Assembly: GCA_049325595.1 (NCBI GenBank)
Contig: JBMOLF010000010.1
Location: forward strand, 64,001 to 128,000
DNA: 64,000 nt
Direction: 5' to 3'
From: Candidatus Babelota bacterium
GTDB lineage: Bacteria; Babelota; Babeliae; Babelales; Vermiphilaceae
The notes under the pieces are model-generated. The model saw nothing but the letters and a program-made list of their open reading frames with translations, searched no databases and was not told the origin of the DNA. Positions 854 to 61,710 of the stretch are shown in pieces. Positions within the stretch are counted from its first letter, which is position 1; each line of letters begins with the position of its first letter. Position numbers and translations under genes: made by a program.

Positions 854-2188
854 TTAAAATAATCTACGACGAGTATTATATTTTTTTTCAGAAAAACTAT
901 CTTTTTCTTTGGTTTCTTCACCAGTAAAAGCGGCATTGTATTTACGTTTTGCACTAACTTTTTTTGGTGAGGGGCTTAAAGTTTCTTTTTCAGGACTAGT
1001 AATAGATTTTTTTTCTTCCGATTCTTTTTTTTCTACTTTTTTGTAGAGCGTACATTCTGATTTTAAGTTATCAAATGTTGCAACTAAATTTTTATATGAT
1101 TCAGGACTATAATTTGGATTAATACATGCTTGATTATACTCTGTTTCATTAAACTCAGTAGCATTACCGGTATATGCCATGACCAAATTATCTTTATCTC
1201 TAAGTATTAATTTTTCATGCATAATGTTTGGCATTAGACCATGCTTTTTAGTATTACCTTCATTGTATATAAAGGTGTTAATATTTTTGTACTCTACTAG
1301 CTCATTAAGTATTTGTTTTTGTTTATCACTAGTCGGATTGTTAATAATAATTTCAAATTCAGTTCCCTGTTTTGCTTGTTCTTTAATTTGATTGATAATA
1401 TCGGGAGCTGTCAGATTCATTGTAGCAATGCGTACTTTTTTACCGGTCAAACGATCAGCAGTGATTTTGTTTAATTTATGTTTTAATGAATCAAGAAAAG
1501 TAATTTTTTGCGGTGTACATGGAATAGTTTCTTTTTGTTCATCAATTTTTTTTGTTTCAGGACTTTTATCACCTGCCAATGGTACGCAAGTTTTTTTTAA
1601 ATTTTCAAATGATTTTATGGCATCGCAAACGACTTCGCTATTTTTTATTTTTTCCACAAATTCTACATTATGATAAGCATGACCTGAAAGATTACGTGAA
1701 CCCATGACTAAAATATGTTCTTTATCAAGATTGGTTAGTTTATCAACACTTTGTGAACGAGGACGTCTTTTTGCAATTACCGTTTTAGCATGCACGGGCA
1801 TAATGTGAGCTAAATGTACTGAAACTTTAGGATTTTCTTTGGCTATTTCTTCAGCGGCTTTTTTGTTGCGATTGGTGTCATCTAAAATAATTTCTGTTGA
1901 AGCTTTTGTGCTTTTTAATGCATCTATGAACCATTTATCAGTAAGGTGAGATGCTATTATTTTTAATTCGTCGCCTTTTTCTAAAGATGAAATTGTTGAT
2001 TTTTGTGGTTTATGAGGGCCACCTTTTTTGGCTGAAAAAACAAATTTTGTCTCAGCTTTTTTCTTGATTGGTGTGGAAATTGGAGTTGCTATTGGTGTTG
2101 ATGGATTGGTATTAGTATTATTTTCCATCCCAATAACCGGAAAAGCCATAAGAGATACAAAAACTATAATTTTTAGAATATTTTTCAT
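854..2188 (-). CDS. Secreted phospholipase D superfamily (Nuc-like) protein with two HxK motifs
   Basis: Signal peptide; HAK...GSRNLS and HEKLILRD...YTGNAT motifs; basic low-complexity tails. Confidence 0.8.
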   Translation of the reverse strand: MKNILKIIVFVSLMAFPVIGMENNTNTNPSTPIATPISTPIKKKAETKFVFSAKKGGPHKPQKSTISSLEKGDELKIIASHLTDKWFIDALKSTKASTEIILDDTNRNKKAAEEIAKENPKVSVHLAHIMPVHAKTVIAKRRPRSQSVDKLTNLDKEHILVMGSRNLSGHAYHNVEFVEKIKNSEVVCDAIKSFENLKKTCVPLAGDKSPETKKIDEQKETIPCTPQKITFLDSLKHKLNKITADRLTGKKVRIATMNLTAPDIINQIKEQAKQGTEFEIIINNPTSDKQKQILNELVEYKNINTFIYNEGNTKKHGLMPNIMHEKLILRDKDNLVMAYTGNATEFNETEYNQACINPNYSPESYKNLVATFDNLKSECTLYKKVEKKESEEKKSITSPEKETLSPSPKKVSAKRKYNAAFTGEETKEKDSFSEKKYNTRRRLF

Positions 2189-2372
2189 TAGGATTTAATC
2201 CTCCACGAGATTTTAATTTAAGTATCGCATAAATTGACAATATGTCAATATATGCCCTGGCAAATTATAATTATTATTTTGAATAATTATTCTATTTGCA
2301 AACAATTGGTTTGTTGAGTTTTATTCTTTAAAAAAGTTAATCTAAAAAAAGAATTTTAGGGGGATAAGCTAC

Positions 2373-2786
2373 ATGATAAAATACATTGCACTATTGATTT
2401 GTTTTAACCTATATGGTTACAAAAAAGACTGTTGGCAAGAAAGAAATAACCAAGATTCGGTAACTAGCTATTACAATTATACTTATTATCCCTATCGATC
2501 TCGTTATATTGGTTTGCCATTTAAACAACGTTGTGGGGTAAATTTAACTGATCAGGAAATCATAGAGATCGAAACAGAACTTGCTCAATTTAATCCACTT
2601 ACTCCTATTACTGATAGTTTTATCTATTTATACAGAGAAACCGTTACTGGTAAGATATTAAAAGATTTGTACGATAATCGCATGGCGACTATTGTAGGTG
2701 AAGCATTACGCATTATTCAAGAAAGTCATGCAGCTCAAACAAGAAGACAAAAAACGAGTGAATTTGATAGTGATGGTGTTTTATAA
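2373..2786 (+). CDS. Hypothetical protein, probable signal peptide
   Basis: GGGG RBS, hydrophobic N-terminus, no recognised domain. Confidence 0.65.
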   Translation: MIKYIALLICFNLYGYKKDCWQERNNQDSVTSYYNYTYYPYRSRYIGLPFKQRCGVNLTDQEIIEIETELAQFNPLTPITDSFIYLYRETVTGKILKDLYDNRMATIVGEALRIIQESHAAQTRRQKTSEFDSDGVL

Positions 2787-2803
2787 TACTAAAGGAGTGT
2801 AGC

Positions 2804-3937
2804 GTGCGCATTGCTATGGTATCAAACAACTATACTCCTTATTCAGGGGGAGTGGTAAGTTCACTTAATGCTATTGTACCTCAGCTGCAGGCGCTTGGTC
2901 ATGAAGTAATTATTGTAACATTAGATTTTACAGGTGATCATTGCGATCCTGACTATGTTATTCGTATAAAAACATGCCTCAAATTTTTATATAAAAATAA
3001 TCATATGGCATTACCCTGGCGGCTGCATCAGCAACTTCAACAGATTTTAATAAATTATAATCCGGATATTATTCATATTCATCATCCTTTTTTATTAGGA
3101 GCTGCGGCGGTCAGGATAGCAAAAAAACTACAAAAAAAAGTTATTTTTACGCATCACACGCTCTATCATGCGTATGCTCATTACATTCCCTTTGCGCCCA
3201 TTGCTCTTACTCAAAAATGTATCAATGCATTAGTAACATCGTTATGCAATAAAGTTGATGGAATAGTTATACCAACATTTGATGTAATGCAATTTTTAAT
3301 CCCCGCTATACATTACAAAACAATAGTATTGCCAAGCCCGCTACAATCACACTTTTTAAACAATCAATTTATACCAAAAAACAAAGAGTCTAAATTTCGG
3401 TTACTCACCATTGGGCGTATGGTTCCCGAAAAAAATGTAAAATGGCTTTTAGAGATGTTTACTGGTTTAAATCCTGAATTATTTGAGTTTACTCTTGTTG
3501 GATATGGTTCTAGTTATAACGAATTGCAAACCTATGCGTACGATCTATTAAAATTATCTTCAACAACAGTAAAATTTGTTCATAAACCGGATAAAGAATT
3601 ACTTAAACTTTTTTATCGTAATGCTGATTTATTTATTTTTGCAAGCCAAACTGATACACAGGCTTTAGTCTTAGCCGAGAGTATGGCATTTGGTACACCA
3701 GTTATTGCCCTTGATGGTGTTGGACAACGACACATCGTGGAACAGGGCTATAATGGCTATCTAGTACATTCTCATCATGAAATGCGATTACTAATACAAG
3801 CGTTAGCCAATGATGCAGATCATCATATGTATTTACAAAAAAATGCTTTTCAAACGAGTCTTGGTTATCATCCAGCTGTATTAGCAGAAAAATTGATTAC
3901 TTTTTATCTAAAGACTGGCTGCAATACTGTTTGTTAA
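2804..3937 (+). CDS. GT4 family glycosyltransferase
   Basis: MRIAMVSNNYTPYSGGV, HIHHPF, GRMVPEKN, DTQALVLAESMAFGTPVI motifs. Confidence 0.92.
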   Translation: MRIAMVSNNYTPYSGGVVSSLNAIVPQLQALGHEVIIVTLDFTGDHCDPDYVIRIKTCLKFLYKNNHMALPWRLHQQLQQILINYNPDIIHIHHPFLLGAAAVRIAKKLQKKVIFTHHTLYHAYAHYIPFAPIALTQKCINALVTSLCNKVDGIVIPTFDVMQFLIPAIHYKTIVLPSPLQSHFLNNQFIPKNKESKFRLLTIGRMVPEKNVKWLLEMFTGLNPELFEFTLVGYGSSYNELQTYAYDLLKLSSTTVKFVHKPDKELLKLFYRNADLFIFASQTDTQALVLAESMAFGTPVIALDGVGQRHIVEQGYNGYLVHSHHEMRLLIQALANDADHHMYLQKNAFQTSLGYHPAVLAEKLITFYLKTGCNTVC

Positions 3938-8901: not shown

Positions 8902-10221
8902 GTGAAGAAATTATTTTGCTTGTTTTTTATATCGATGTCGATTGGTGCAATGGAAGAAAAAGATAAGCCAATTGTTTTGCGCAGTTTGTCCGAACTTCTT
9001 TCACAAAAAAATATAAAAAAAGACTTCAGCATTAATTTAGTTTCGGAAGGTTTAACATCATTAGAAGGTATTGCTAATGCACGATTTATTAATAAATCAA
9101 AAAAATTTTGGAAAGAGGAAGTTCATTTATTGTTCATATCACACAATTTTATTAGTCATCTTCCTGATGAAATTGGGGAGTTTGTCGCATTAACAAATCT
9201 TTGGGCTACGCATAATTGTATAAATAACATGAGCCCTCAAATAAGTAGGTTAACCAATTTAGAACACATAAATCTTAACTATAATCGACTCGAGGAGTTA
9301 CCCATATCAGCTGGATTTGGATTCCTAAAAGAGTTAGGATTACAAAATAATTTATTAAAAAAGTTACCAGATTTATCATATTGTAGTCGCCTAGAAGTTC
9401 TTCATTTAAACCATAATAACTTATGTAATTTAACTGATGAAAAAGGCAATATTATTTTACCAGTTAGTCTTATTAGTTTGAGTGTAAGCAACAATAAGAT
9501 AACTAGTTTACCAAAAGATATAACGCAATTATCGAGGTTAATGTTTATAGATATTTCCTATAATCCACTTAATGAACTTTCTATTGATGGTGAAAGTTTT
9601 ACTAGATTGTCTAATTTAAATTTTAGCAATTGTTGCATAAAGAAGCTATCTAAGAGTTTTGGTAATATACAATATGATGGTGATAATTTTTTGCCTTTTA
9701 TTATAAACTTATCGGCAAATCAGCTGTCGGCAATGCCAGCTAATTTTGATAAAATATCTGGAAAGTTTCTTGTTAGTTTAGAAAAAAATTGTTTTACAAG
9801 AATAGGAAAGAGTTTATGCAAAAAGTTAAAATACGTAACACATTTGAATTTGGCTCTTAATCCCATTTATGAAATAAGCTTAGCAATTGAATTACTTCAA
9901 CGATTGATTTATTTAGACTTAAGTAATTGTCAGATTAAGAAGCTGCCACGCGAATTAAATTTATGTCAGTTGGATACTTTTAAGCTAAATAATAATCAGC
10001 TCATGGAATTGCCAGATGCTATTACACAATTAACAAATTTAAATTCACTTCAAATATTAGATAATCATCAACAATTACTAACATATATTTTTGATGATAA
10101 AAATAATAAAGCCATATTTAATTTTATCCAACGTTTACGTAAACAAAAAAATGTTCAATATGGCAATCCATTACGCCAATTACCTACTGATATGAAACGA
10201 GAAATTTATAAACATCTTTAG
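8902..10221 (+). CDS. Secreted leucine-rich repeat protein with C-terminal F-box-like motif
   Basis: Signal peptide, repeated LxxLxLxxNxLxxLP; ends LRQLPTDMKREIYKHL. Confidence 0.88.
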   Translation: MKKLFCLFFISMSIGAMEEKDKPIVLRSLSELLSQKNIKKDFSINLVSEGLTSLEGIANARFINKSKKFWKEEVHLLFISHNFISHLPDEIGEFVALTNLWATHNCINNMSPQISRLTNLEHINLNYNRLEELPISAGFGFLKELGLQNNLLKKLPDLSYCSRLEVLHLNHNNLCNLTDEKGNIILPVSLISLSVSNNKITSLPKDITQLSRLMFIDISYNPLNELSIDGESFTRLSNLNFSNCCIKKLSKSFGNIQYDGDNFLPFIINLSANQLSAMPANFDKISGKFLVSLEKNCFTRIGKSLCKKLKYVTHLNLALNPIYEISLAIELLQRLIYLDLSNCQIKKLPRELNLCQLDTFKLNNNQLMELPDAITQLTNLNSLQILDNHQQLLTYIFDDKNNKAIFNFIQRLRKQKNVQYGNPLRQLPTDMKREIYKHL

Positions 10222-33936: not shown

Positions 33937-34650
33937 TTAGTGTGTAAATTCTTTATAGCAATTAGTTTGGTATTGGGATGGCGTAGCAGTAAATATGAGT
34001 TTGGGATCAACCCCATTTACTTCTAAATCTTCATAACATATTAAATTTTCAATACCCATTTCATCAGGTTTATTTAAAATTCCTAATTCGTAATAATTTA
34101 ATTCTTCATTATCACTAGCATTCTCGATAATAGTTTCTGCGGTATCAGATGATTCAGATGATTCTAACGAATAGGATAATTCTGATGAGAGATTAGATAG
34201 ATCAATTTTTTTACACGATTTAATATGCGCTAATAAGCTTGATATAAGAGTATATTTAATCCCACATGAACATTGAAAAAAATCATTAGCATAATGACCT
34301 AAAAAGCATGAAGCAACACCGACAGCATTTGCTTTGCTTGTGGTTTTGCAATCAGGGTAAGGGCAATGATACTGAATAGCTTTACGTCCATCAGGTCTAA
34401 CCGTATAGCTTGTTTCTCCACCTTTAATATAATCTTTAATCGATTCAAACGTGGTGAATTGTTCAAATTTATTTGCAAAAAATTGAGTAATTCTACTATC
34501 AACTTGTGCCTTAACAAAGTTTTTAACATCAAATTCACTATACGAATTACCTTCTAATGATTGGCAACTATTTCTTATACTTTTATGGCTCATAGCATGA
34601 ATCGATTGAGTAATACATAAGAGTAATAATTTTAATATAATTTTTTTCAT
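33937..34650 (-). CDS. Secreted zinc-finger protein (paralog 1)
   Basis: MKK signal peptide; Cx4Cx13Cx3H and CxCx12Hx3C; acidic Ser-rich tail. Confidence 0.82.
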   Translation of the reverse strand: MKKIILKLLLLCITQSIHAMSHKSIRNSCQSLEGNSYSEFDVKNFVKAQVDSRITQFFANKFEQFTTFESIKDYIKGGETSYTVRPDGRKAIQYHCPYPDCKTTSKANAVGVASCFLGHYANDFFQCSCGIKYTLISSLLAHIKSCKKIDLSNLSSELSYSLESSESSDTAETIIENASDNEELNYYELGILNKPDEMGIENLICYEDLEVNGVDPKLIFTATPSQYQTNCYKEFTH

Positions 34651-34663: not shown

Positions 34664-35380
34664 TTAAAAGCTTGAATTTTCATAGCCATTTAAAGAATCA
34701 AATTGAAAAGATGTAATCTGTTCGATTTGATTTTCAATAGCATCAAAATCAGTCTTTTTAGAAGCGCAGATATTTAATGGTGATTGATAGTTATTTATAA
34801 TAAGTTTTGGCAGCTTATATAATTGATCTGTAGATGGTTGATTTTTTAATTTGATAATTATCGATGGTATTGGTATTGCCACATTGTTTTCGGTGGTGTT
34901 ATTGAGAGGTTGAGAAAATTGTCTTTGTTTTTTGCAAGACTTTTTTATGTGAGACCATAAGCGTTCTATATTTTTGATTGATTTATCGCACTGAGGGCAA
35001 TGAAAAAAATGATCATAGTGAGAAAGAAAGCAGGAAGCAACTTCGTTGATATTTTTTTCTCTGATTGTTTGACAATTCTTATATGGGCAGTGATATTGAA
35101 TTATTGTTTCTGAATTTTTCTTAACATAGGTTTTTACCCCATTTTTAACATGCTCCCTAACTGCAGCAAAACTAGTAAGTTGAGGATATTCATCAGCAAA
35201 AAAATTACTAATTTTATTGTTAACAAGTTCCATAACGCTACATTTAATTGTTGTAAAATCTGTCTCAGAAAATTTTTTGTTCTTGATTATGCGGTTATGT
35301 GTTATTGGGGTGCTATTCTCCATTGGGTAAAGAAATGAATACATGACTAATGCAAGCGCGACAGATAAAATTTTTTTCAT
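34664..35380 (-). CDS. Secreted zinc-finger protein (paralog 2)
   Basis: MKK signal peptide; Cx4Cx13Cx3H and Cx2Cx12Hx4C. Confidence 0.82.
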   Translation of the reverse strand: MKKILSVALALVMYSFLYPMENSTPITHNRIIKNKKFSETDFTTIKCSVMELVNNKISNFFADEYPQLTSFAAVREHVKNGVKTYVKKNSETIIQYHCPYKNCQTIREKNINEVASCFLSHYDHFFHCPQCDKSIKNIERLWSHIKKSCKKQRQFSQPLNNTTENNVAIPIPSIIIKLKNQPSTDQLYKLPKLIINNYQSPLNICASKKTDFDAIENQIEQITSFQFDSLNGYENSSF

Positions 35381-35715: not shown

Positions 35716-37161
35716 AGTTTGACGTTCCGAACAATTTAAGATCAAATCAAATGGCTTTTGCGCCTCGTAGACGATGTTTTCACCATCCACCTGTAAGTTC
35801 GATAGTACGAGCTTAATTAATTGCCGTTTTTCTGTAACTTCAGAACTTTTAAAAATATCATAGGCGTGATTTGTCAGATCTAGTATGTATTTTGCGGTAA
35901 TATAGTAGTTATCTTCTGCCTCTTGTAAGCGCTCTAATTTGAGGGTTACTTCGGCAAGCTGATCTCTAAATGATTGGTAAAATTTGTCATACGCGCTCTC
36001 AGTAATTCTCCCTTTGAGTTTATCAAGGTATAAATTGTCCATCATTTTGGTCAGGGATTGGTGTTGGCCCGTAAGCTCTTTGTATTGTTTCGTTTGAAAA
36101 TCCATCTTATATTGGTGGACTTCATCCAGCGTTTGCTTGATAGTGGCTGCTACGTTGGCTGGCATTTGGAGATTCTTAAAAACTTGGCTGAGCTTTTCGG
36201 TTATTGTTTCTTCACGTAACCAGGCTGCACCATGCTTGCCGTTGTATTGGGTGCAATGGTAATACACAAAACCTTTATGCTTTTCTGGGGTGATTGCCAA
36301 TCCGCAGGTAGCGCATCGAAACATACCTCGATAGATATAGGGCAATCCGGCAAACTTGGCAGGCTTCTTTTTATAGCTTGCTTTTACTTCTTGCACTCGA
36401 TCAAAAAGAGTTTTGGGGATAAGTGGTGGATAACGATGGGGATAAAATTTATCATTTCTTTCCATCACCCCGTAATAGAAATGATTTTTGAGAATATGAT
36501 CGGTAAAGCCTTTAGACCAGGTAACGTTATAATCTTCTTTGAGCTTTGCCCGTAATAAATCCATGGAGTAAACCCCAGTGCCATACAGCTCAAATGCTTT
36601 TTGAACAATATAGGCCTTGTGATCATCAATGATAATATCTTTTTTACCATCCGGTGTTTTTATATTTTTGTATCCTAATGGCGCTTTACCAGGCAACTCG
36701 CCTTTGCGTAGCTTTTGCTCATTGGCACGGCGCACATTGTCGCTAATAGCATCAGAGTAATATTTGGCCAACCCTAAGCTGATGTTAAATTGAAACTTTT
36801 CAGTAGCGGATATCCTACTATTGATAACCTGCCCTTCTGAGACAAAGTGAAGCTCAATCTGATCACACAATGCTTTTTCGTATAATAAAGAAATACGCTT
36901 ATCAAATACATTACGGGAAAGCCGATCAACCTTATCGCAACATACGATAACTTTTTCTTTTTGACTCAAAATTAAATCGATAATGCGATCAAACTCAGAG
37001 CGCTCTAATGAGTAAGCGCTTTCATCAAAACTACAGATGTTTAAAATGGGGTAGCCTTTTTGCTCACAATAGCGCTCAAGGCGGGCAATCTGCGCAGGTA
37101 ATGAGTTACCGGCTTCTCGTTGTTCTTCAGTACTCACGCGGGCAATAAGAATGGCTTTCAT
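35704..37161 (-). CDS. Large serine recombinase (integrase)
   Basis: ARVSTEEQ catalytic Ser, DRLSR, APLGY, CATCG...YYHC zinc ribbon, coiled coil, EKRQLIKLVL. Confidence 0.96.
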   Translation of the reverse strand: MKAILIARVSTEEQREAGNSLPAQIARLERYCEQKGYPILNICSFDESAYSLERSEFDRIIDLILSQKEKVIVCCDKVDRLSRNVFDKRISLLYEKALCDQIELHFVSEGQVINSRISATEKFQFNISLGLAKYYSDAISDNVRRANEQKLRKGELPGKAPLGYKNIKTPDGKKDIIIDDHKAYIVQKAFELYGTGVYSMDLLRAKLKEDYNVTWSKGFTDHILKNHFYYGVMERNDKFYPHRYPPLIPKTLFDRVQEVKASYKKKPAKFAGLPYIYRGMFRCATCGLAITPEKHKGFVYYHCTQYNGKHGAAWLREETITEKLSQVFKNLQMPANVAATIKQTLDEVHQYKMDFQTKQYKELTGQHQSLTKMMDNLYLDKLKGRITESAYDKFYQSFRDQLAEVTLKLERLQEAEDNYYITAKYILDLTNHAYDIFKSSEVTEKRQLIKLVLSNLQVDGENIVYEAQKPFDLILNCSERQTWCA

Positions 37162-37266
37162 GGTGGTCTCTGCTTAGTTGAAATTTTTAAATCCTTAGCA
37201 GTTTAGTGATTCATGAAAATATTTCTAGAGTTAATGACAGGGGCGTATGAAAAAAGTATCGTACCA

Positions 37267-37295
37267 TAGACAATGTATCATGATCGTGATACGAT
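37267..37295 (+). promoter_or_regulatory. Sigma70 promoter with overlapping palindromic operator for the TA operon
   Basis: TAGACA-17bp-TACGAT; GTATCA-TGATCG-TGATAC palindrome in the spacer. Confidence 0.7.
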
Positions 37296-37320
37296 AAGAT
37301 ATAAAAGTCTGGAGAAGTAA

Positions 37321-37704
37321 ATGTCTAAAAGTTATATAGTATATGAAGGCGAACAATTTACCATAGAATGGTATTTTGACAGCCGTGGAACAAGTCGGGC
37401 TCGGGAATATTTTAATGAATTATCACATGATAGAAAAAATAAATTTTCCTATCTGCTTTTTCTTCTTGCTAATAGAGGGAAAATATTCAACCAAGAAAAA
37501 TTTCGTTATGAAGGTGATCAGATATATGCTTTAAAGCCAACACCGGATCGGTTCTTATGCTTTTTCTATGATGGTTCAAAAATAATAATTACTAATGCAT
37601 ATGAAAAGAAAACAGCAAAGATGCCGGTGCGTGAGAAAGAAAGAGCATTAAAGGCAAAAGCTGATTATATAAAAAGATGTCAAGGAGGAACCTATTATGA
37701 CTAA
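37321..37704 (+). CDS. RelE/ParE superfamily toxin (Gp49/HigB-like)
   Basis: IYALKPTPDRFLCFF...IIITNAYEKKTAKMP..EKERA; precedes and overlaps HTH gene. Confidence 0.85.
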   Translation: MSKSYIVYEGEQFTIEWYFDSRGTSRAREYFNELSHDRKNKFSYLLFLLANRGKIFNQEKFRYEGDQIYALKPTPDRFLCFFYDGSKIIITNAYEKKTAKMPVREKERALKAKADYIKRCQGGTYYD

Positions 37705-38029
37705 AAAAAAGATGAAATCTACTCTTGAGGAACATATTGAATCAATGACGCCAAAACAACGAAGAGAGTTTGAAGCTGAATATCAAGAGCTTTTATTGTC
37801 TGAATTGCTTTTAGCTGCTATGGCCAAAGATGAAGTTTCAGTAAGAGAGCTGGCTAGAATGGCTGGTGTATCGCCTACGGTAGTGCAAGCAATGCGCACG
37901 GGAACAAAAAAAGATTTTAGCATGCAGAGCTTTTTTAAAGTGTTAAAAGGTCTTGGTTGTAAAAAAATAATGGTAGAGCTTAATGGTCAATTAATCCCAT
38001 TAGATATATCTCAATCAATTAAAAAATAA
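37697..38029 (+). CDS. XRE-type HTH antitoxin
   Basis: VSVRELARMAGVSPTVVQAMRTG HTH; coupled to toxin. Confidence 0.85.
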   Translation: MTKKKMKSTLEEHIESMTPKQRREFEAEYQELLLSELLLAAMAKDEVSVRELARMAGVSPTVVQAMRTGTKKDFSMQSFFKVLKGLGCKKIMVELNGQLIPLDISQSIKK

Positions 38030-38205
38030 TGGCAAGAAGTAGAAATTATAAAGATCTATTAATTGAATCATTAAAAGATCCTACAGAAGCAGTAGGTTAT
38101 CTAAATGCCATTCTTGAAGACTACAAAGATAATGATGAAAAATCACAAATAGTATTGCAAGTAGTACTAAAAGATATCGCGCAAGCACAAAAAAATTATC
38201 GTTAA
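38029..38205 (+). pseudogene. Truncated addiction-module antidote-like ORF (58 aa, lacks HTH)
   Basis: Not in ORF track; MARSRNYKDLLIESLKDPTEAVGYLNAILED...VLKDIAQAQ then stop; TAATG overlap with antitoxin. Confidence 0.6.
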
Positions 38206-38281
38206 TGATACAGAGAGGAGCACTACAGAAATGTGGTGCTCGTTTAATTACAACTTTTCAAGAGAGTTGCATGAGCTTAAA

Positions 38282-38905
38282 ATGAGTAAAATACGCTGCT
38301 TATTAAAATATTGCGGGAAGTATTATTTAATCTGCTTTATTAGATTTGTGAAAGACAAGGTTTTAGTAAGCTTTACAAGTTCTCATTGGTCAGAAATATT
38401 TGGTTTGGAAATTGAACATCATTTTAATTATCCTAGTAATGGAAAATTACATAGCACTTACAATCATTTTGACAAGACTAATGATTCAGATAATTTTTTC
38501 ATTCATGCCTATAGCAATAAAATAGTTACTAAATCTTTTAAAAATGGCCAACAAAAAAAAGATGAACGCAACGGTAAAGAATTATTAAATCACTTTATTA
38601 ATAATAATTGTAGACCATTATCTGAATATGAAACTACAAGTACTTTTTTTGATTTTCCATGTATTGGATTTGCAATTTGCTCAATTCCAGAAGAGCAATT
38701 TAAAAAATTTCAAGCTTCATTCCCCAAAGAAAATGATGTGATAATTGACGCAGAGTTATGGAATGGTACTTGTGTGACTATAACGCCATATGTTGCAAAC
38801 AAAGAATATGAACTTTCTTTTTTTCCTTTTGCTATAAAAAGTGAAATCGACTGTGGAAAATTAAAAATTGGTATACGTGTAAGCCTCAATAAGCAAAATG
38901 TTTAA
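38282..38905 (+). CDS. Hypothetical cargo protein
   Basis: Long AT-rich ORF without recognised domain; start uncertain (38231 alternative). Confidence 0.6.
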   Translation: MSKIRCLLKYCGKYYLICFIRFVKDKVLVSFTSSHWSEIFGLEIEHHFNYPSNGKLHSTYNHFDKTNDSDNFFIHAYSNKIVTKSFKNGQQKKDERNGKELLNHFINNNCRPLSEYETTSTFFDFPCIGFAICSIPEEQFKKFQASFPKENDVIIDAELWNGTCVTITPYVANKEYELSFFPFAIKSEIDCGKLKIGIRVSLNKQNV

Positions 38906-40046
38906 GGTTTATTGGTTTAAATTTCTTTAAACATTCGCGCACCGTTTCAAATGGGCTTTGGGTACCAACTATTTTTACTTTTTGTACATCTTTAATAAGC
39001 CGATACCAGCTGCGTTGATTGCATTTGGCAAATAGCGCTCTTAGTTCCCGTATATTTACGACATCTAATGCTTTTGATAAGCCATAGGTAATTAAAATTT
39101 GCTTAGGGCTTAGTTCAGGATTGTTAATAATTAATGAAGCTAGCAATGCTTTATCGACCTGTCCTTCGTAGCCTTGGCGGAGTAGGATGGGTGCTTTGTA
39201 ATCCAAGATTGCTAATCGTGCCCTTTCAATCTCATCAAGATAATGTAAAAGAACTTTTTTAGAGATGGTTGGTTTGAATAAGCTTTTAAAAGAAAGATCT
39301 GATGGTATATGCAAAACTTTAAAAAGCTGTTTAATTTTGTGCCGTTTATTTAAACGTACTTCCATGCGCAAGATTTCAAGTTTGTTGCGATTATTAAATC
39401 TATCAAGAAAGTTTAATTGTAATTCGTTATCTTTTTCTAATGCACGTTTGCTGCTCGCTTGTGCTTTCTCAAGATCTTTTATTTTGTCATAGAATACCAC
39501 TTCATATGAGTTGCAATGCCATTTGTAGCTGTGGCCTTCATTGCGATAATCAGTTTGATTTACATCAAGAGTAAGCTTAGTGTTTGCTTCTTTAATTTTG
39601 TTTATGTAGTGGTAAGGTGTTGAGCCATCAGTTAGTGGAATATTTTTTGAGTAGTGGATAGCTGATAGCGGTGCTTTTGCTAATGTTGCTGGTGTTGTGT
39701 GTATGCCCATGTTTGCAAGCACCTGTGCAAGCTTATGAGTAAGTGCTGCAAAATCTTTGGCGCGTAATTCTTGAAAATTGTTACCAAACATGAGCTTTGG
39801 CAATGATAACTCAATTTTGAGCGACACTGTTGAACCACCTAATGGGTTGATGCGGTGAGCGAGAGTAAGGCATGGTTTGTAAATACCCAATGCAAATTCC
39901 CTTTTGGTGGGATTTTGTTTTGATTGGATGCCGTGCGATTGGTTCGTGTAAGGTTGTAAAACCCATTGCGCTGATGGTGAAAATAATTCAGGATCAGTGA
40001 GCGTAAATTGGTCTTTGCGTAAAAGAATTACTACCGTGTCTATCAT
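38886..40046 (-). CDS. Phage/plasmid replication initiator, gene II/X-like (rolling-circle)
   Basis: MIDT start, IELSLPKLMFGNN, VFYDK, ILRMEVR motifs. Confidence 0.75.
   Translation of the reverse strand: MIDTVVILLRKDQFTLTDPELFSPSAQWVLQPYTNQSHGIQSKQNPTKREFALGIYKPCLTLAHRINPLGGSTVSLKIELSLPKLMFGNNFQELRAKDFAALTHKLAQVLANMGIHTTPATLAKAPLSAIHYSKNIPLTDGSTPYHYINKIKEANTKLTLDVNQTDYRNEGHSYKWHCNSYEVVFYDKIKDLEKAQASSKRALEKDNELQLNFLDRFNNRNKLEILRMEVRLNKRHKIKQLFKVLHIPSDLSFKSLFKPTISKKVLLHYLDEIERARLAILDYKAPILLRQGYEGQVDKALLASLIINNPELSPKQILITYGLSKALDVVNIRELRALFAKCNQRSWYRLIKDVQKVKIVGTQSPFETVRECLKKFKPINLKHFAY
39156..39190. repeat. GC-rich REP-like palindrome inserted in frame in rep
   Basis: GACCTGTCCTTCGTAGCCTTGGCGGAGTAGGATGG, encodes ILLRQGYEGQV, contains GTAG twice. 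Confidence 0.6.
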
Positions 40047-40302
40047 ACAACACATACCTCAAACAAACGAATAAGCAATTGCTTAAAGATAATGCGGCAG
40101 CTAAAAAAGACAAGACCTGGTTTTTAATCCAGGCCTTACTTACTTCTTTTGATCGTACTTTTTTTGCACGACGACATATATTGGTTCGTTGATCAACTTG
40201 ATGCAGCAATGATATAAATGCTACAAGCTGTTGCAAATCTGATGGTGACAACGCAAATGTCTGCGCTCGTGTACGCGTACGAGTAGTTTTCTTTAATGTC
40301 AT
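39994..40302 (-). CDS. Small basic hypothetical protein upstream of rep
   Basis: ORF overlapping rep start; basic N-terminus. Confidence 0.5.
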   Translation of the reverse strand: MTLKKTTRTRTRAQTFALSPSDLQQLVAFISLLHQVDQRTNICRRAKKVRSKEVSKAWIKNQVLSFLAAALSLSNCLFVCLRYVLYDRHGSNSFTQRPIYAH

Positions 40303-40528
40303 AAAATTTCTGTTCTAACAATGAGTTGAATATATGAAGATTGCTTGCTTAGTAGGCAAATTGTTTTTGAGGATGATTATGCCTGGATTCAGATAACCAT
40401 AATGCATAATCAATAATATAGAACAGATTCATGGGTTTCTCTTGTGAGAATAAAGTTTGCTTTATTACAACGAGAAGCAAGTATAAATAGTTTGATATGG
40501 ATTGCAAGAAGATAACATTCTTTAAAAT

Positions 40529-40570
40529 AAAAATAGGTGCAGATTTAATTGGCTACACCTATTTTAGAAT
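40529..40570 (-). terminator. Intrinsic terminator after cargo gene
   Basis: AAAATAGGTG...CACCTATTTT stem. Confidence 0.7.
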
Positions 40571-40584
40571 AGATTTGGGAGAGA

Positions 40585-41136
40585 TTATCGTACTTCTGCA
40601 GTAACATCAAGAAGTGATTCAGATAAATCATTGCCTTTAAGATCTAAATTAATACCAAGGCCTATTTTCTTCTGATTAACTAAATCAATATTCTCTGACC
40701 AGTACGTTATGATGCCTGGGCCTGTACGTATTGAATTGAACATAACCCTAATACCATCTAAATCTGCAGGATTAATCCTTGGTCTTATAGTAATAAATAG
40801 AGCGCCTCTAACATTATTTCTTTCATCAGATACTTTAATTGTAGCATCTCTAATTATCGCATCTCCTGAACGTACTGGGCGCAAGGTTATTGGCACATTT
40901 TTTACTGTTTTTCCAGGTTTTAATAAGATTAATCTTATTTCTTCTTTAGAATAAACATCGCCAGGTAAATCACCGACAGCTTCAGACAAGAAAAGATCCT
41001 GATGAGTGTGATTAGTCACTTGAGCATAGTAGGCAAAAACTTTATCAAGATTGTTTTGGTGTGGTTCTGCAGGCTGCATTGCATTTACAATTCCTAAAAC
41101 AGTGAATGTGAATATCATTTTCTTCATTAAATTCAT
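40585..41136 (-). CDS. Secreted cargo protein of the element
   Basis: AAGGG RBS, MKK signal peptide ending VNA-MQ; beta-rich. Confidence 0.75.
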   Translation of the reverse strand: MNLMKKMIFTFTVLGIVNAMQPAEPHQNNLDKVFAYYAQVTNHTHQDLFLSEAVGDLPGDVYSKEEIRLILLKPGKTVKNVPITLRPVRSGDAIIRDATIKVSDERNNVRGALFITIRPRINPADLDGIRVMFNSIRTGPGIITYWSENIDLVNQKKIGLGINLDLKGNDLSESLLDVTAEVR

Positions 41137-41651: not shown

Positions 41652-42509
41652 ATGAAAATTAGATTTTTCCTATTTTTTTATTTGTTATTTTCACAAACCA
41701 GTTATTCCATGGATTTAATGGAAATGTGTGTTAGTGATAGTGATGCGACTACAACAGATATATTTGATAATTTTTCAGATGATTATTTATCTGAAGAAAT
41801 AAGTACGTGTGATATTCCTAAACAACTCAGCGAAATTACTGAAGCATACAACGGTTATTTTACAAACATTTATAATTCTTATGTTTTAGATGCTCAGCAA
41901 ACAGCTACTCAATTTTTTTCAAATAAAATGAATGAGATGATTTGTTGCTCAGCATTGCTCAAGAGTTGCAACCACAATACCAATAAAATTGAGTTATCTC
42001 TTGAACAGATGTCTTGCTCTGAAGAATCTGAATTAGATAATGCCCCATCAAAAAATAATAGCAAAGCTTATGAAACCACATATACCTACGAAGATGATTA
42101 CAAATATCAACCATCACAAGATATAGTTAATGATCCAGTAAAGCTTGAACGGTATGATAGATTTCATACATTGATCAATCTGCGCTATAAAGAAGCAAAA
42201 AAGCTATGTTGTAGCCAATCATTTAAAACGATCAGAGCATTTAAAAAACATGTTACTGAACACCATGTAACCTGTGTTAAACAAAATAATAAAACAATTT
42301 CGCAATATCACTGTAGTGATTCTGTATGTCAGGAATGTCCTTATAAATCGGCTGATGCGGCAATAAGCCATTTTTTACACAAACAAAATCCAAAGTTATT
42401 TTGGTGCCCAGAGTGTCCTTGGAAAATAAAAAGTTATACGGCATTTTACCGCCATTATAATTTTAATTGTCCCACATTAAAAAAATCTTGCACTGCCAAA
42501 ATAAAATAA
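41652..42509 (+). CDS. Secreted zinc-finger protein (paralog 3)
   Basis: Signal peptide, acidic N-region, CCx12Hx3H, Cx4Cx13Hx2H, Cx2Cx12Hx4C. Confidence 0.85.
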   Translation: MKIRFFLFFYLLFSQTSYSMDLMEMCVSDSDATTTDIFDNFSDDYLSEEISTCDIPKQLSEITEAYNGYFTNIYNSYVLDAQQTATQFFSNKMNEMICCSALLKSCNHNTNKIELSLEQMSCSEESELDNAPSKNNSKAYETTYTYEDDYKYQPSQDIVNDPVKLERYDRFHTLINLRYKEAKKLCCSQSFKTIRAFKKHVTEHHVTCVKQNNKTISQYHCSDSVCQECPYKSADAAISHFLHKQNPKLFWCPECPWKIKSYTAFYRHYNFNCPTLKKSCTAKIK

Positions 42510-42524: not shown

Positions 42525-43496
42525 TTAGAAATCATTAAAATTCATCTCTTCTAAATAGTTTTGAGATTCATCGTATGAGCATTGATTAAGTTGGTAAGCA
42601 TAATAATTTTCTGGTGATTGTGTTATGTCATTAAGAGCGATTACATTGGGCCTTATACCCGGCTGATATGAAGCGACAATTTTTTGTACAGGTGTTTTTA
42701 GTTGACTGTTTTCTAATTCACTGTTGTAAAGAGCACATTCATTAAGGTAATGATCTTTAAGGATTTTATATTTTTCAAATTTTTCCTTGCATCTAGGACA
42801 AGTAAAAAAAATTTTATCAAAATGTTTTACATAACAGTTTGCTACTGAATCTATTTGCCGGTCGTCACAAAAAGAACAAAATTTATAAGGACAATGATAA
42901 AATCTATCTAGATCACGATTAAACTTAATACATTGTTTTAATTGTTCCCAAGTTTTGATATGCAATTTATTGGGTTGATTAGGATTACCAAAATTTTTTT
43001 CAATTTGTTGATCAATGTATGAATCAAAATATTTTTTATGATCAAAATCATTGCTTTCTAATTTATTACTCTCAATTTCTTGATACGAATTGTTTTGCTC
43101 AACTCTTTTGTTCTCGCTCTCAATTGGCGTTGATTGCTGTAATTGAGCAATTTGTTTATCGTCATTATCATCTTCGATAATGATGATATTGTTGTTCTGA
43201 TTTAATTTGTTACGGCCAGTAAAAAAAATGAGTTTAGGGGTTTTAGGTTGAGTTGGCTTTATAATAATGCGAGGAGTCTTATTACTGGGTTTTTTATCAA
43301 AAAGAATATTATCAGGCTGTGTATTTACACGAATGCGTAAATGTTGATTGCGGTGAGGTTTGTTGTACTTTATGGAAAAATCTGGCTGTTTGCTGGTGTT
43401 ATCCATTGCGTGTATGACAGCATTAATAATAAACAAACAACAAACTCGGTATTGTTTTGATGTTTTGCTTGATTGATTGTTTATATACTGAGCCAT
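42525..43496 (-). CDS. Zinc-finger protein (paralog 4), probably secreted
   Basis: VIHA-MD, N/Q-rich region, Cx4Cx13Cx3H and Cx2Cx12Hx4C. Confidence 0.8.
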   Translation of the reverse strand: MAQYINNQSSKTSKQYRVCCLFIINAVIHAMDNTSKQPDFSIKYNKPHRNQHLRIRVNTQPDNILFDKKPSNKTPRIIIKPTQPKTPKLIFFTGRNKLNQNNNIIIIEDDNDDKQIAQLQQSTPIESENKRVEQNNSYQEIESNKLESNDFDHKKYFDSYIDQQIEKNFGNPNQPNKLHIKTWEQLKQCIKFNRDLDRFYHCPYKFCSFCDDRQIDSVANCYVKHFDKIFFTCPRCKEKFEKYKILKDHYLNECALYNSELENSQLKTPVQKIVASYQPGIRPNVIALNDITQSPENYYAYQLNQCSYDESQNYLEEMNFNDF

Positions 43497-44644: not shown

Positions 44645-45205
44645 ATGAATCGAATGGCGACTCTTTTACTTATTTTTTATAGTTATTTGTTATATCCAGT
44701 AGTTACTCCTTTAACTGTTGAGCGGGTTTTTACTGACTTATTGGTTGAAGAAGAAGAATTATTTGTTCGCGCTTTTGTACAAGGTTTTAAAGATATTCCC
44801 CACGACATTTTAAAAATATATGATATTCCTGCGCGTGCACGTTTTGTATTTGAGGACGAGCGCAAACAACTGCATGATAAAACAAAAGAAATTTTCTTCT
44901 TGCGTGCAATAAAAGATAATCAATTAGTAGGATTAATTACCTTTCAAACTTATGGATCTGACCAGATTGTTTATATTCGTGCGTTAGCGGTTGACCCAGC
45001 ACACATGCGTACCGGTGTGGGTACATTTTTGGTAAGTCAATGTAAAGAATTTATACCTAGCGCTAAAGAATTAGTATTAGCAACCCGTAGTTGCAATTAT
45101 GGCGCTATTGCTTTTTACAAAGCGCTTGGCTTTTTCGAGTATGATGAAGTTCCGTATGGTTGGGATCCAACTTTGTTTATTGGTTTGAAATATCAAATTT
45201 ATTAA
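44645..45205 (+). CDS. GNAT acetyltransferase with signal-like N-terminus
   Basis: LAVDPAHMRTGVGTFL, NYGAIAFYKALGF. Confidence 0.9.
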   Translation: MNRMATLLLIFYSYLLYPVVTPLTVERVFTDLLVEEEELFVRAFVQGFKDIPHDILKIYDIPARARFVFEDERKQLHDKTKEIFFLRAIKDNQLVGLITFQTYGSDQIVYIRALAVDPAHMRTGVGTFLVSQCKEFIPSAKELVLATRSCNYGAIAFYKALGFFEYDEVPYGWDPTLFIGLKYQIY

Positions 45206-47194: not shown

Positions 47195-47800
47195 ATGAAA
47201 AGGTTAATTATCATATCGTTATTCTCGTGCTTAGGGTATGCGTCAGAAAACCAGAATATTGCGATCTTTGATTCTATTATCAAAAACGGCTTTACAGAGG
47301 TTCCTGCGTTGCGCCACCAAGTTTTAACGCCTGAAGGACGAGTAGAAATCTTGCGAAACCGAGCGTCTGAGCGGTTAAATCAAATAACCTTTAATCGAGC
47401 TTTAAAAGGTATTACTCCGTATCAGGTAGAAACGAGTCGTTATTATCAAGCGAAGTTAGAAAGTGTTCAAGCTACTTTTATGGTTCCTGAAAGTTCATTA
47501 CTTTATAGCATTAAAAATCATTTTCTTACTCTTGTTGCATCTGGCATCGTAGCTAATGAAATGGCATTGATAAAAGGACATTTAGATGAAGAAAAGGTTA
47601 AAAAATTTGAATATGATCGTCTTCACGATTTATGCTTACTATCATTGCTTCTAAGTGCGGATAAAAATAAATTTAATATTTCTGATCTCTCTGAATTGTT
47701 GCCTATGCTTGAAGAAACTCATCAATCATGGCCGCCGATAAAATTTTTACACCTCGTTAATAAACAGTCTGGCTATAAAACCATAAAAGAGCTGTTGTAG
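47195..47800 (+). CDS. Secreted hypothetical protein
   Basis: AAGGA RBS, signal peptide (GYA). Confidence 0.72.
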   Translation: MKRLIIISLFSCLGYASENQNIAIFDSIIKNGFTEVPALRHQVLTPEGRVEILRNRASERLNQITFNRALKGITPYQVETSRYYQAKLESVQATFMVPESSLLYSIKNHFLTLVASGIVANEMALIKGHLDEEKVKKFEYDRLHDLCLLSLLLSADKNKFNISDLSELLPMLEETHQSWPPIKFLHLVNKQSGYKTIKELL

Positions 47801-49394: not shown

Positions 49395-50141
49395 ATGAAA
49401 AAGATATTCCACATGTTTATGCTAGTGAGTTTATTGCCTATGCATTGTTTAGCGAGTGAACTAACAGAAACGCGTAGTAAATGCAAAGACTACAAACTTT
49501 TGAAAGTATGTTCGCTGCTTGCAAATTGCGTGAATATTAATGGGACGCTTACTCTTAATGGTACAAACATTAATAATTTAATTAACATATCAAATATTAT
49601 TAGTTCAGGTAGTCCCCTAGTAAATTCATTGGTACCTTTTTCTTCGGGTCTTTTAACATTGGGTGTTGATTTGCCTTTAGGATTACCAACAACAGGTATC
49701 TTACTTGGATTTGGTTCAAGCAATTTAGCAGATTTGGTTGATCCGGGGCTTACCGTTACTAATACTGGATACGCTTTTTCTGTTCCACGTGCAGGTACTT
49801 TGCATGATTTAAGAGTAAGTGTAGATTCTGTTTATGCAATTGGGGCACCTTCTACACCATTTAGTCTTACCTTCACTATTATTGTATCTAGCTGTACGGC
49901 AGGTACATTAACTCCTTATACAGCTACTGCATTAGCAGCTACAGCTACAACAACCGCGCCAGCACAACCCATTACAATATTAACAGCCGGTGGAGCTGGT
50001 TGTGGATCAAGTGCAACATCAATTCCAGTTGCTGCAGGTGACCGTGTTGCATTATTGGTAACCCCAAACATTGCTATTCCAATTACTACTTTAGCAACTC
50101 TCTCATTAAGCGCGGGTGTACTTTATAGTCCTGCTTTATAA
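49395..50141 (+). CDS. Secreted protein with BclB C-terminal-like domain
   Basis: VPFSSG, LLGFGSS, YAFSVPRAGTL, IPVAAGDR, SAGV motifs. Confidence 0.7.
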   Translation: MKKIFHMFMLVSLLPMHCLASELTETRSKCKDYKLLKVCSLLANCVNINGTLTLNGTNINNLINISNIISSGSPLVNSLVPFSSGLLTLGVDLPLGLPTTGILLGFGSSNLADLVDPGLTVTNTGYAFSVPRAGTLHDLRVSVDSVYAIGAPSTPFSLTFTIIVSSCTAGTLTPYTATALAATATTTAPAQPITILTAGGAGCGSSATSIPVAAGDRVALLVTPNIAIPITTLATLSLSAGVLYSPAL

Positions 50142-59446: not shown

Positions 59447-60193
59447 ATGAAATCTATAAAAACAATATCTTTATCATTGTTGTCATTGGTTGTGGTTGGT
59501 TCACAGCTTAATGCAATGAATATTCCAACCAAAGTTGGACCACATGCAACATTTATTGCTCGCATTACACCTAAAAGACAACCGGTTAATTTTTTTGCAC
59601 CGGTGGTAAATGTTGAACCTGCTATTAATGTTGAAGATCCATATGCGATCGCAACACAGCAAGAATTATTAGATCAATCGGCAGGATTACCTGCGCAAGA
59701 AGTTGTAGCCTCAGTATCATTTGCACAACGTGCACAACAATTTGCAAAAAATGCTTTTAATGCTGCATCTGAAAAAGCACAAACTTTTAAAACAGCAGTA
59801 GCTGAAAAAGCAAAAAATGCTTATAACAGTGAAATGGTTCAAAAAGGTTTTGCAAAATTAGCAAACGTACATGAATTTGCAGTAACACAAGGTAAAGTTG
59901 TTGCAGCTAAGGTATCTGAAAAAGCAACCCAAGCTATGGAATTTGTAAAAGAAAATCCAAAATTAGTTGCTGGTGTAGCAGCTGGTTTAATTGCTACTTA
60001 TGGTGTATACAAAGTTGTTACTGATTTGCTTAAGCAAAGAGACAGCGATGTTGTTGTAGATGAAAAAAAAGAACAACATTTTAGTGAATTAACTCCCGAA
60101 GAAGCTCAGAAGCTTATAGGTATGGGTAATGGCATGGAAGAATCTATCATAGATCCAGAACATGCAGCACAAATGGAAGCAAATAGACAATAA
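59447..60193 (+). CDS. Secreted/membrane protein with Ala/Lys-rich helices and C-proximal TM
   Basis: GGAGG RBS, signal peptide, KENPKLVAGVAAGLIATYGVYK. Confidence 0.8.
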   Translation: MKSIKTISLSLLSLVVVGSQLNAMNIPTKVGPHATFIARITPKRQPVNFFAPVVNVEPAINVEDPYAIATQQELLDQSAGLPAQEVVASVSFAQRAQQFAKNAFNAASEKAQTFKTAVAEKAKNAYNSEMVQKGFAKLANVHEFAVTQGKVVAAKVSEKATQAMEFVKENPKLVAGVAAGLIATYGVYKVVTDLLKQRDSDVVVDEKKEQHFSELTPEEAQKLIGMGNGMEESIIDPEHAAQMEANRQ

Positions 60194-60211
60194 GAACTTC
60201 TTTGAAGATGT

Positions 60212-60331: not shown

Positions 60332-61093
60332 ATGAAAATATTACAATCAATTATAATAGGTTTAGCTGTTTTGGTGGGCTCAGCTCAAGCAGATTGGACT
60401 TCTGTTAAATTTATCGATCGCGTAAATACCGCGGTTAAAAATGGCAATGTTGGTCCTCAATGGGTACCAGTTGCTCCAAAAATTAATCCAGCGCCGTCTG
60501 GTTGGACCTCGCCTAAGTTTATTGACCGTGTAAATGCGTGGCAAGAACGTATGCCAAAGCGTGAACTTACATCGGTAACTGAAGTTATTCAACCGAAAGA
60601 AATTGTATCAATGCAGCAAGAAGCGGTTAATTTTACAGAAGTTGAAAAAAATTCATTAGCTGAAAAAGCAAAATGGCTTGTTAATAACGCAAAAGATGTT
60701 GCTTCTAACTTGATTAAAAATGTATACGATAATGCAACAATGCAAAATGTATTAACAAAAGCTCAGGATAACAAAAAAGTTATTACTGGTGTTGCTCTTG
60801 GTGCAGCAGTGTTGTATGGTGGTTATAAATTATATTCATATATAACAAAACCAAGTAAATCTATTGTTTATGACACTGACAATAATGCACAAGAAGAGGC
60901 ATTTCAAAAGAGGTACGAACAATTAACTCACAAGCAAGAAGTGGTATCAAGTAATAAAGCTACCCAAATTGTGAGTTCTATGAATCAACAAGCGCAAATG
61001 CCAGCTATGATGAAAAATGTGAATGGTATACTCACAGAACAATCACGTTTGCAAAACTATCATGCAAAACCGAGTAATGTAAAATTATTTTAA
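60332..61093 (+). CDS. Secreted/membrane protein, paralog-like of 59447..60193, with internal repeat
   Basis: GGAGG RBS, signal peptide, WTSxKFIDRVN twice, ITGVALGAAVLYGGYK. Confidence 0.8.
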   Translation: MKILQSIIIGLAVLVGSAQADWTSVKFIDRVNTAVKNGNVGPQWVPVAPKINPAPSGWTSPKFIDRVNAWQERMPKRELTSVTEVIQPKEIVSMQQEAVNFTEVEKNSLAEKAKWLVNNAKDVASNLIKNVYDNATMQNVLTKAQDNKKVITGVALGAAVLYGGYKLYSYITKPSKSIVYDTDNNAQEEAFQKRYEQLTHKQEVVSSNKATQIVSSMNQQAQMPAMMKNVNGILTEQSRLQNYHAKPSNVKLF

Positions 61094-61118
61094 AAAGTAT
61101 AACTCTATTACTATATTT

Positions 61119-61160
61119 AAAAAGGCATGTTGTTGTTAAATCAGTGACATGCCTTTTTGT
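61119..61160 (+). terminator. Intrinsic terminator
   Basis: AAAAAGGCATGT...ACATGCCTTTTT. Confidence 0.8.
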
Positions 61161-61248
61161 TTTTTTCTACCTGGACAATTTTAGAAATATTGGTAGATTT
61201 ATACGCAGTTTATAATCTTCAATATATTTACTACATGGAGTCTTTCGT

Positions 61249-61710
61249 ATGAAATACTTACTTTCTTTATTTATGTTGTTATCTATTGTTTCAGTAAACG
61301 CAATGGAAAATAATTTATCACGTTCTGAGTCAGACAGTTTTGTATCAGCTGAATCTTCATGTGAAGAAACAAAATCATTTGTAACAACTGCAATGGCTTC
61401 AGCTACCGAAAAGGTTGGAGAAGTTGTTGAGGCAGCTAAACAAAATGCAGAAGAAGCAGTAACAAAAGTTGAAGGTAAGTGTGCTAAATTTGGTAAATCA
61501 GTAAAAGCTAAATTTGCATCATTGCGTGGAAAAACTCCAACTTTTGCATCAATCAAATCTGGTATTAAAGCTGGTGCAAAAAATATAGCTGCTAAAATTA
61601 AAAATAATCCAAAAAAATCAGCAGCAATCGTTGCAGCAACTGTAGTGACTGTTGCCGCTATAGTTGTTTGTGTAAAAAAATATAAAGAAAAAAAAGCTAA
61701 AGTTGCTTAA
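61249..61710 (+). CDS. Secreted/membrane protein with C-terminal TM and Lys tail
   Basis: Signal peptide NA-ME, KNNPKKSAAIVAATVVTVAAIVVCVKKYKEKK. Confidence 0.8.
   Translation: MKYLLSLFMLLSIVSVNAMENNLSRSESDSFVSAESSCEETKSFVTTAMASATEKVGEVVEAAKQNAEEAVTKVEGKCAKFGKSVKAKFASLRGKTPTFASIKSGIKAGAKNIAAKIKNNPKKSAAIVAATVVTVAAIVVCVKKYKEKKAKVA

Follow-up and report, generated by a model that had tools for sequence, protein, structure and literature searches.

A methionine directly after the predicted signal peptides of effector-like proteins in a Babelota genome

Introduction

Why should so many secreted-looking proteins of an intracellular bacterium have a signal peptide that ends exactly before a methionine? 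The question arises from a 64,000-nucleotide stretch of a Candidatus Babelota genome (G000:C10:64001-128000; hereafter the window), which belongs to the Dependentiae (Babeliales), is 1.29 Mb long with about 34% GC, and is 95% complete. A preliminary description of the window listed eleven leaders followed by Met at the first position of the predicted mature protein (+1), mostly with Asp, Glu, Asn or Gln at +2, and read the Met as a second-step export tag, as mimicry of host proteins, or as a trace of signal peptides grafted onto existing genes. In the sequences analyzed here, the Sec-type leaders of fast-evolving, eukaryote-like and orphan proteins end just before Met or, less often, before Ser or Ala, with Glu or Asp as the usual next residue. 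From this pattern we infer that the leaders are cut before the Met, that the type II system exports the proteins and that they act in the host. Among named records, the ATP synthase alpha of this genome is closest to that of 'Ca. Dependentiae bacterium Noda2021' (89%). Babelota have been observed in the cytoplasm of protist hosts (PMC12172432, cited, like all papers here, from excerpts).

Predicted signal peptides end before Met throughout the genome

Leaders and cleavage sites were called with a heuristic written for this study, rather than with SignalP, that weighs the residues at −3, −2 and −1 together with hydrophobicity; the leader finder is loose and also takes some non-secreted proteins, such as SecA. 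Leader-like starts without further membrane helices were found in 596 of the 1,294 open reading frames (ORFs). The motif [AGSTCP]-M-[DE], with M at residues 14-32, was present in 96 of these 596 signal-like proteins, whereas the same motif in three downstream control windows was found in 1/596, 3/594 and 3/579 (Fisher p ~3e-51), and the enrichment suspected from the window thus holds genome-wide. Among the 559 proteins without a leader call the motif occurred 15 times, against 6, 4 and 5 downstream, and these 15 matches are probably missed leaders.

When the cut was placed by a rule that ignores the +1 residue (the Met-blind rule), Met stood at +1 in 108 of 588 proteins (about 18%, with a Met background of 1.5%) and Gln in 42. 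The following residue was Asp or Glu in 70/108 cases, compared with 124/480 after other +1 residues; Asp, Glu, Asn or Gln followed Met in 83/108. The pattern small-X-[DE] at residues 15-28 yielded X = Met 94, Ser 52, Gln 44 and Ala 22 times, whereas a control window of three times that length gave 5, 58, 60 and 57; enrichment is therefore about 55-fold for Met, two- to three-fold for Ser and Gln, and hardly any for Ala. The leaders are of the Sec/signal peptidase I type, with a basic n-region, a hydrophobic h-region, A/G/S/T/C at −1 and L/I/A/S/T/V at −3, and a residue table for positions −7 to +9 revealed no Arg preference and no RxL. As a separate observation, two leader proteins (L087:18571-19383 and L100:10880-11989) would expose Met-Gly, a possible myristoylation start, while their paralogues have Met-Asp or Met-Trp.

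The Met is conserved and marks fast-evolving, effector-like proteins

In a same-genus genome (G001; 800 kb of 1.22 Mb compared) the motif was found in 49/339 vs 3. Orthologue pairs with Met-D/E/N/Q numbered 25, two of them uncallable; by eye the Met was kept in 19 of the remaining 23, with divergent leaders, and other Mets in the same comparison were kept in 49/135. Automatic alignment recovered only 14/33 because N-termini misalign. On this sequence comparison, the +1 Met is under selection. Met-Glu and Ser-Glu/Asp exchange within families.

A Pfam scan covered 145 proteins (143 of the genome's 144 Met-bearing, or Met-class, proteins plus two window ORFs) and 150 of 291 other proteins. No family was assigned to 105 of the 145, and the commonest matches were ankyrin and leucine-rich repeat (LRR) domains. 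Ankyrin proteins were identified by Pfam searches, which replaced an inadequate regex finder, and the +1 residues of repeat proteins were read by eye. All 42 ankyrin/LRR/WD40 proteins have leader-like starts; +1 is Met in 17, Ser, Ala or Gly in 12 (M/S/A/G 29/42) and another residue in 13, with Asp or Glu at +2 in 31. A loose F-box-like motif matched 20 leader-like proteins, 18 of them Met-class. Proteins starting Met-D/E/N/Q and [SAG]-[DE] are alike in their orthologue identity (~40%), whereas Gln-starting and other leader proteins reach 58-60%. By the Met-blind rule, +1 Met was present in 4/85 conserved and 28/129 divergent proteins (p 0.0007), which supports a tie to effector-like, fast-evolving proteins.

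The pattern extends across the phylum

In 58 Dependentiae-like atpA loci (four unrelated ones left out) the motif was found in 36/407 vs 6. Among ten genomes of other families (61-80 kb each) it was clear in f11; f3 and f5 had Met with a non-acidic +2, f6 and f13 had Ser instead of Met, and in f4 and f7 the motif was not seen within these 61-80 kb. Val, Ile or Gln follows Met in G065. Reading by eye revealed a preference for Ser in the families of G058, G023 and G030; in G059 (f12) the ankyrin-like proteins mostly have Ala at +1. Some proteins of G059 and of G061 start with Met.

A DNA proxy (MKK start, 36-66 nt, then small-Met-[DE]) was counted over 71 genomes and ranged from 0 to 40 matches, with 33 in this genome, against a noise estimated by inspection at ~3-6 per genome; our own script found 32 here, 29 of them in frame. 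E. coli gave 4 matches, none on a hydrophobic leader, three unrelated genomes gave 8, 1 and 6, and a Vermiphilus genome gave 6, about half on leaders. A Ser version of the proxy was too noisy for use.

For Babela, 41 rows of the published annotation were inspected (PMC4378268, supplement 9). In 19 of 21 ankyrin rows a small residue and Met stand at the leader end (one with a truncated leader); of the other two, one is ambiguous and one leaderless. At least one published SignalP flag accompanies 17 of these 19, and +2 is D/E/N/Q in 11. Met was also present in 2/2 F-box and 3/5 WD40 rows, and in 0/7 'periplasmic' and 0/3 'outer membrane' rows, several of these controls being anchored proteins or lipoproteins. 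The observation is thus confirmed as real and phylum-scale.

The Met is neither an internal start nor a likely relic of grafting

If leaders had been grafted onto genes at their start codon, or if the internal ATG were a second start, the Met would be a relic. Shine-Dalgarno sequences precede 58/98 leader starts, 1/98 internal ATGs and 14/400 random internal ATGs, GTG/TTG show no excess at +1, and residue 2 of ordinary starts is Asp or Glu in 46/559 proteins, compared with the 70/108 after +1 Met. The internal Met is therefore not a start codon. Unrelated families lack long common leader DNA, the Met stays while leaders turn over, and Gmd and uridine kinase, evidently grafted enzymes, have no +1 Met. 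A GDP-fucose-synthase-like gene in which an apparently ancient Met lies shortly after the leader, and some clustering of Met-class genes (next gene Met-class in 29/144 vs 112/1126), speak for a relic; this explanation, already largely refuted, is nevertheless rejected as the main cause and strikes us as very unlikely.

Expansion of a single family was likewise rejected, as the 144 Met-class proteins fall into 109 families, 59 of which are Met-Asp/Glu families. The position of the hydrophobic stretch, ahead of the site, speaks against a prepilin-type cut, which was rejected too. Cysteine parity, considered as a sign of a reducing compartment, did not differ significantly (even in 45/98 vs 145/254, p 0.07).

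Export machinery and a membrane-anchored acetyltransferase candidate

The genome encodes SecA and one signal peptidase I (LepB), and no second, dedicated signal peptidase was found in it; G019 and G021 have two signal peptidase I copies. A type II locus comprises GspC, two GspD, GspL and a GspM-like gene (one secretin named by Pfam, the others by reading), and a GspE-like ATPase is also encoded in the genome, so that a possible second export step, as had been surmised, is available. Within this locus (L080:8565-16795) two long secretins of 787 and 857 aa lie in tandem; some families have a third, shorter one. Two or more secretins are encoded in 71/71 genomes, a feature already in print (PMC4776705). 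Neither the type III marker FlhA/SctV nor the type IV marker VirB4 had a match in the 95% complete genome; type VI was not searched for. In Babela, type II was the sole secretion system detected (PMC4378268).

A single-copy GNAT protein of 191 residues with an N-terminal anchor (G000:C11:28741-29316, i.e., L104:12421-12996, minus strand) adjoins truA downstream in 12/12 loci inspected. Of the 71 genomes, 61 encode it and the other ten, from f4, f7, f12, f14 and f15, gave no match; Babela has a homologue, BAB00528. An N-terminal hydrophobic helix occurs in 57/59 homologues, with more positive charge before than after it in 51/57; the catalytic domain is accordingly predicted outside the cytoplasm, a topology read from charges only. 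Profile comparison places it, among solved structures, nearest mostly to protein N-terminal acetyltransferases (Naa30, Ard1, RimI, Naa50), although the score against the rimI profile, 61.9 bits, is below the 86.4-bit cut-off. The structural model (pLDDT 84) matched RimI best (Z 19.0, root-mean-square deviation 2.0 over 138 residues) and also Ard1 and NatC, with small-molecule GNATs within 1 Z of RimI. An AT-1/AmpG acetyl-CoA transporter had no match in the genome. The link between the anchored GNAT and the motif is loose.

Possible roles of the +1 Met

Met, Ser and Ala are the usual N-termini of eukaryotic cytosolic proteins. In the Arg/N-degron pathway neither Ser nor Ala destabilises a protein; Met followed by a hydrophobic residue is reportedly a degron. 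Since the three residues are chemically unlike and yet usual eukaryotic starts, we tentatively favor host-side protection, in which a eukaryote-style N-terminus would shield type II-secreted effectors in the host, while allowing that the odds fall somewhat short of even. The single signal peptidase I would cut directly before Met, the twin-secretin type II system would move the protein over the outer membrane into the protist cytoplasm, and a Met, Ser or Ala start, as in host cytosolic proteins, would escape turnover by N-degron pathways and aminopeptidases. Methionine aminopeptidase does not remove a Met that precedes a bulky or acidic residue. Acetylation, whether the enzyme is the host's or the bacterium's, may come after but is not needed. 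The class bias, the retention of Met in orthologues, the exchange of Met-Glu with Ser-Glu/Asp within families, the preference of other families for Ser or Ala, the ankyrin/F-box/WD40 bias in Babela, the scarcity of Met before a hydrophobic +2 (11/108) and the cytoplasmic location of Babelota in their hosts are consistent with such protection. Listeriolysin O and ActA of Listeria, said to be under N-end-rule control, offer a precedent: there too the +1 residue of a Sec-exported protein brings it into contact with the N-degron pathways of the host, although these are single Gram-positive proteins and not a proteome-wide rule. Several points weigh against protection. Stability alone does not explain the preference for Met, because Ala, Ser and Gly are also non-destabilising; the 13 of 42 repeat proteins with another +1 residue start with Q, L, I, Y, K, R, N or D; and Met is not exclusive to effector-like proteins, being carried also by a glycoside hydrolase and by two conserved, barrel-like proteins that end in Phe. 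In Babela, ubiquitin hydrolases have Met in 0/3 rows, although they are expected to act in the host, and Met-Ile, Met-Tyr, Met-Arg and Met-Lys also occur. Cleavage sites, moreover, come from a heuristic and not from SignalP or proteomics. The narrower proposal that the starts are substrates of the eukaryotic acetyltransferase NatB is only partly supported: the +2 preference in this genome agrees with it, whereas the lower share among Babela ankyrins and the Val, Ile or Gln of G065 do not, as +2 varies while Met is constant and Ser or Ala replaces Met in some families. It is further weakened by the mainly co-translational, ribosome-bound action of N-terminal acetyltransferases (PMC3104970).

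Other explanations lie on the bacterial side. A sorting tag, i.e., an exposed Met-(Glu/Asp) with a loose spacer that is recognized either by a periplasmic adaptor or by the type II machinery itself, would let the system accept over a hundred unrelated, short-lived substrates, and with 109 unrelated families a portable linear tag would be economical. The type II genes, the secretins in every genome, the lack of type III and IV marker matches and the Babela precedent make such a tag a possibility worth keeping, albeit not a likely one, since secretins are universal while proxy counts vary from 0 to 40, 25/42 repeat proteins here lack Met, Met and Ser differ chemically, two barrel-like proteins carry Met, and type II systems are believed to recognize folded surfaces. 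Alternatively, Met and an acidic +2 might merely speed cleavage of mediocre leaders by the peptidase or Sec. Glu/Asp at +2 is raised after residues other than Met too, and Gly or Thr at −1 is commoner at Met sites (31/108 vs 49/380); yet with one signal peptidase I gene, conserved envelope proteins seldom use Met, and we regard this explanation as very unlikely. In a further model, analogous to the Q-rule and improbable but less so than the last, the periplasm-facing GNAT would N-alpha-acetylate Met, Ser or Ala termini before export. Its wide occurrence, anchor, charge pattern and relatives fit, as do the leaders on other cofactor-dependent enzymes and its presence in 15/15 genomes with at least 15 proxy matches; however, 21 genomes with the GNAT have 6 matches or fewer, G059 and G061 lack it and still have Met-started proteins, small-molecule GNATs match the fold nearly as well, no acetyl-CoA transporter was matched, and the topology comes from charges. 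The ten genomes without the GNAT, sampled thinly at 15-80 kb each, come from five families and are not independent; their median is 5.2 vs 8.0 matches/Mb (p 0.03, uncorrected). Sorting tag and acetyl-capping could be combined with host-side protection, and export tag and host mimicry are not separable by sequence data. One such combination, a PEXEL-like pathway in which the Met/Ser/Ala-(Glu/Asp) end, possibly acetylated in the periplasm by the anchored GNAT, is the address for twin-secretin type II delivery of hundreds of host-like finished effectors, is conceivable but rather unlikely.

Relation to known systems

The +1 Met works like the Bacteroidetes Q-rule and the Plasmodium PEXEL but belongs to neither. 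The Q-rule is likewise a lineage-wide preference at the position that follows the signal peptidase I cut; in Bacteroidetes the exposed residue is capped by an enzyme bound to the membrane, and capping stabilises the protein (PMC5837995; PMC10653852). It differs in that the preferred residue here is Met (or Ser/Ala) and not Gln, in that about 18% of signal proteins are involved, with a host-directed bias, rather than most, and in that the modifying enzyme is only a candidate. A search for glutaminyl cyclase that covered family PF05096, but not the animal-type cyclases, had no match in the 95% complete genome. In the Plasmodium PEXEL, RxL before the cut and xE/D/Q after it, proteolysis exposes x-Glu/Asp, and the resulting terminus is acetylated and recognized for export (PMC10952997, PMC10038149). 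An acidic or amide +2 at the new terminus, weaker in Babela, and effectors of an intracellular parasite are common to both, and PTEX, reading xE/D/Q after PEXEL cleavage, is an analogue for a sorting tag. Unlike PEXEL, the present motif has no RxL, follows a bacterial Sec leader, would be exposed by signal peptidase I and not by plasmepsin V, and fixes +1 rather than +2. Some leaders of Holosporales may end similarly.

The same protein class and route are known from the secreted ankyrins and type II systems of Babela, Chromulinavorax and TM6; 79/126 Babela ankyrins have signal peptides, and two gspD copies are reported (PMC4378268, PMC6561590, PMC4776705). The excerpts of these three papers do not mention a +1 Met ('methionine', a word searched in PMC6561590 only, has 0 occurrences there), and no description was found in the open literature, with subscription journals and bioRxiv supplements not covered. 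The secreted ankyrins and type II system being already published, the +1 Met rule is apparently the new, undescribed part. It provides a marker of a single residue for the effectors of an intracellular phylum, which are mostly orphans, and makes testable both how a type II system could select many unrelated substrates and whether effectors are tuned proteome-wide to host N-degron rules. Should the anchored GNAT be involved, this would be extracytoplasmic protein N-terminal acetylation in bacteria, parallel to Q-rule and PEXEL processing.

Junctions and neighboring features in the window

All eleven leader-Met junctions of the preliminary description are present in the sequence (Table 1), although five of the positions given for them (854, 33937, 34664, 40585 and 42525) are the low ends of minus-strand ORFs and not junctions. 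The Met-blind rule cuts before Met in nine; at 19559 it cuts seven residues earlier, and 42525, with its atypical leader, was left unscored. The four envelope proteins named as controls all lack +1 Met, as claimed; Pfam confirmed a phosphodiesterase (13112), MscS (15534) and peptidase M49 (50179), whereas 21074 has no family match, only a C-terminal Phe. Five full-length homologues of the PLD-like protein start with Met-Glu (4/5) or Ser-Glu (1/5), and the Skp1/BTB-like domain at 19559 has elongin C/Skp1 as structural look-alikes (TM 0.65). Not all effector-like proteins are tagged, as the LRR protein at 10896 and an ankyrin protein at 32900, without Met after its leader, illustrate.

Table 1. 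Features of the window and related loci; a slash marks the junction between leader and predicted mature protein.
Feature	Position	Strand	Junction	Remarks
PLD-like protein (PF13091)	854..2188	-	IG/ME	leader 2188-2129; Met21 codon 2128-2126
LRR protein, GTG start	8902..10221	+	GA/ME	+1 Met codon 8950-8952
LRR protein	10232..10891	+	FS/ME	+1 Met codon 10283-10285; Met kept in G001 orthologue
LRR protein	10896..12542	+		adjoins 8902 and 10232 genes; alternative Ala-Glu start, no Met
Skp1/BTB-like domain + LRR	19559..20974	+	NT/ME	Met codon 19628-19630; Met-blind rule prefers earlier cut
Orphan, no Pfam	33937..34650	-	HA/MS	likely start 34650; +1 Met codon 34593-34591
Orphan	34664..35380	-	YP/ME	+1 Met codon 35323-35321; Pro at −1 unusual
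Orphan	40585..41127	-	NA/MQ	+1 Met codon 41079-41077; Met not kept in G001 orthologue
Orphan	41652..42509	+	YS/MD	+1 Met codon 41709-41711
Orphan	42525..43496	-	HA/MD	Met31 codon 43406-43404; long atypical leader
Orphan, Ser-Glu variant	47195..47800	+	YA/SE	
Orphan, Ser-Glu variant	49395..50141	+	LA/SE	
Orphan	59447..60193	+	NA/MN	+1 Met codon 59516-59518; kept in G001 orthologue
Orphan	61249..61710	+	NA/ME	+1 Met codon 61303-61305
Leader-bearing cofactor-type enzymes	L098:7108-9240, L081:14562-15497, L089:17677-18456, L087:14150-14686, L121:80-760, window 44645-45205			

At 35639-41136 of the window, a serine recombinase gene overlaps a tRNA with its end and is followed by two small genes, which we take to resemble a toxin-antitoxin pair, and by orphans, with a Met-tagged gene at the edge; the region is likely an integrated element. 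Elsewhere in the genome, the two Phe-ended proteins with +1 Met (L113:7201-8445 and L084:17809-19113) are 78-82% identical to G001, have no Pfam/NCBIfam match and are possibly lineage-specific outer-membrane barrels. Secreted collagen-repeat proteins are encoded at L063:149-1039, L064:81-1397, L065:7306-9204 and L116:16317-18076, and leader proteins with mitochondrial-carrier, RPE65 and EndoU domains at L119:12126-12977, L099:18162-19766, L107:1640-5140 and L116:4611-7535. Leaders are also present on normally cytosolic, mostly cofactor-dependent enzymes, namely Gmd, Fcl-like and RmlD-like proteins, uridine kinase, a SET domain protein, carbonic anhydrase and GNATs, which suggests access to host cofactors outside the cytoplasm.

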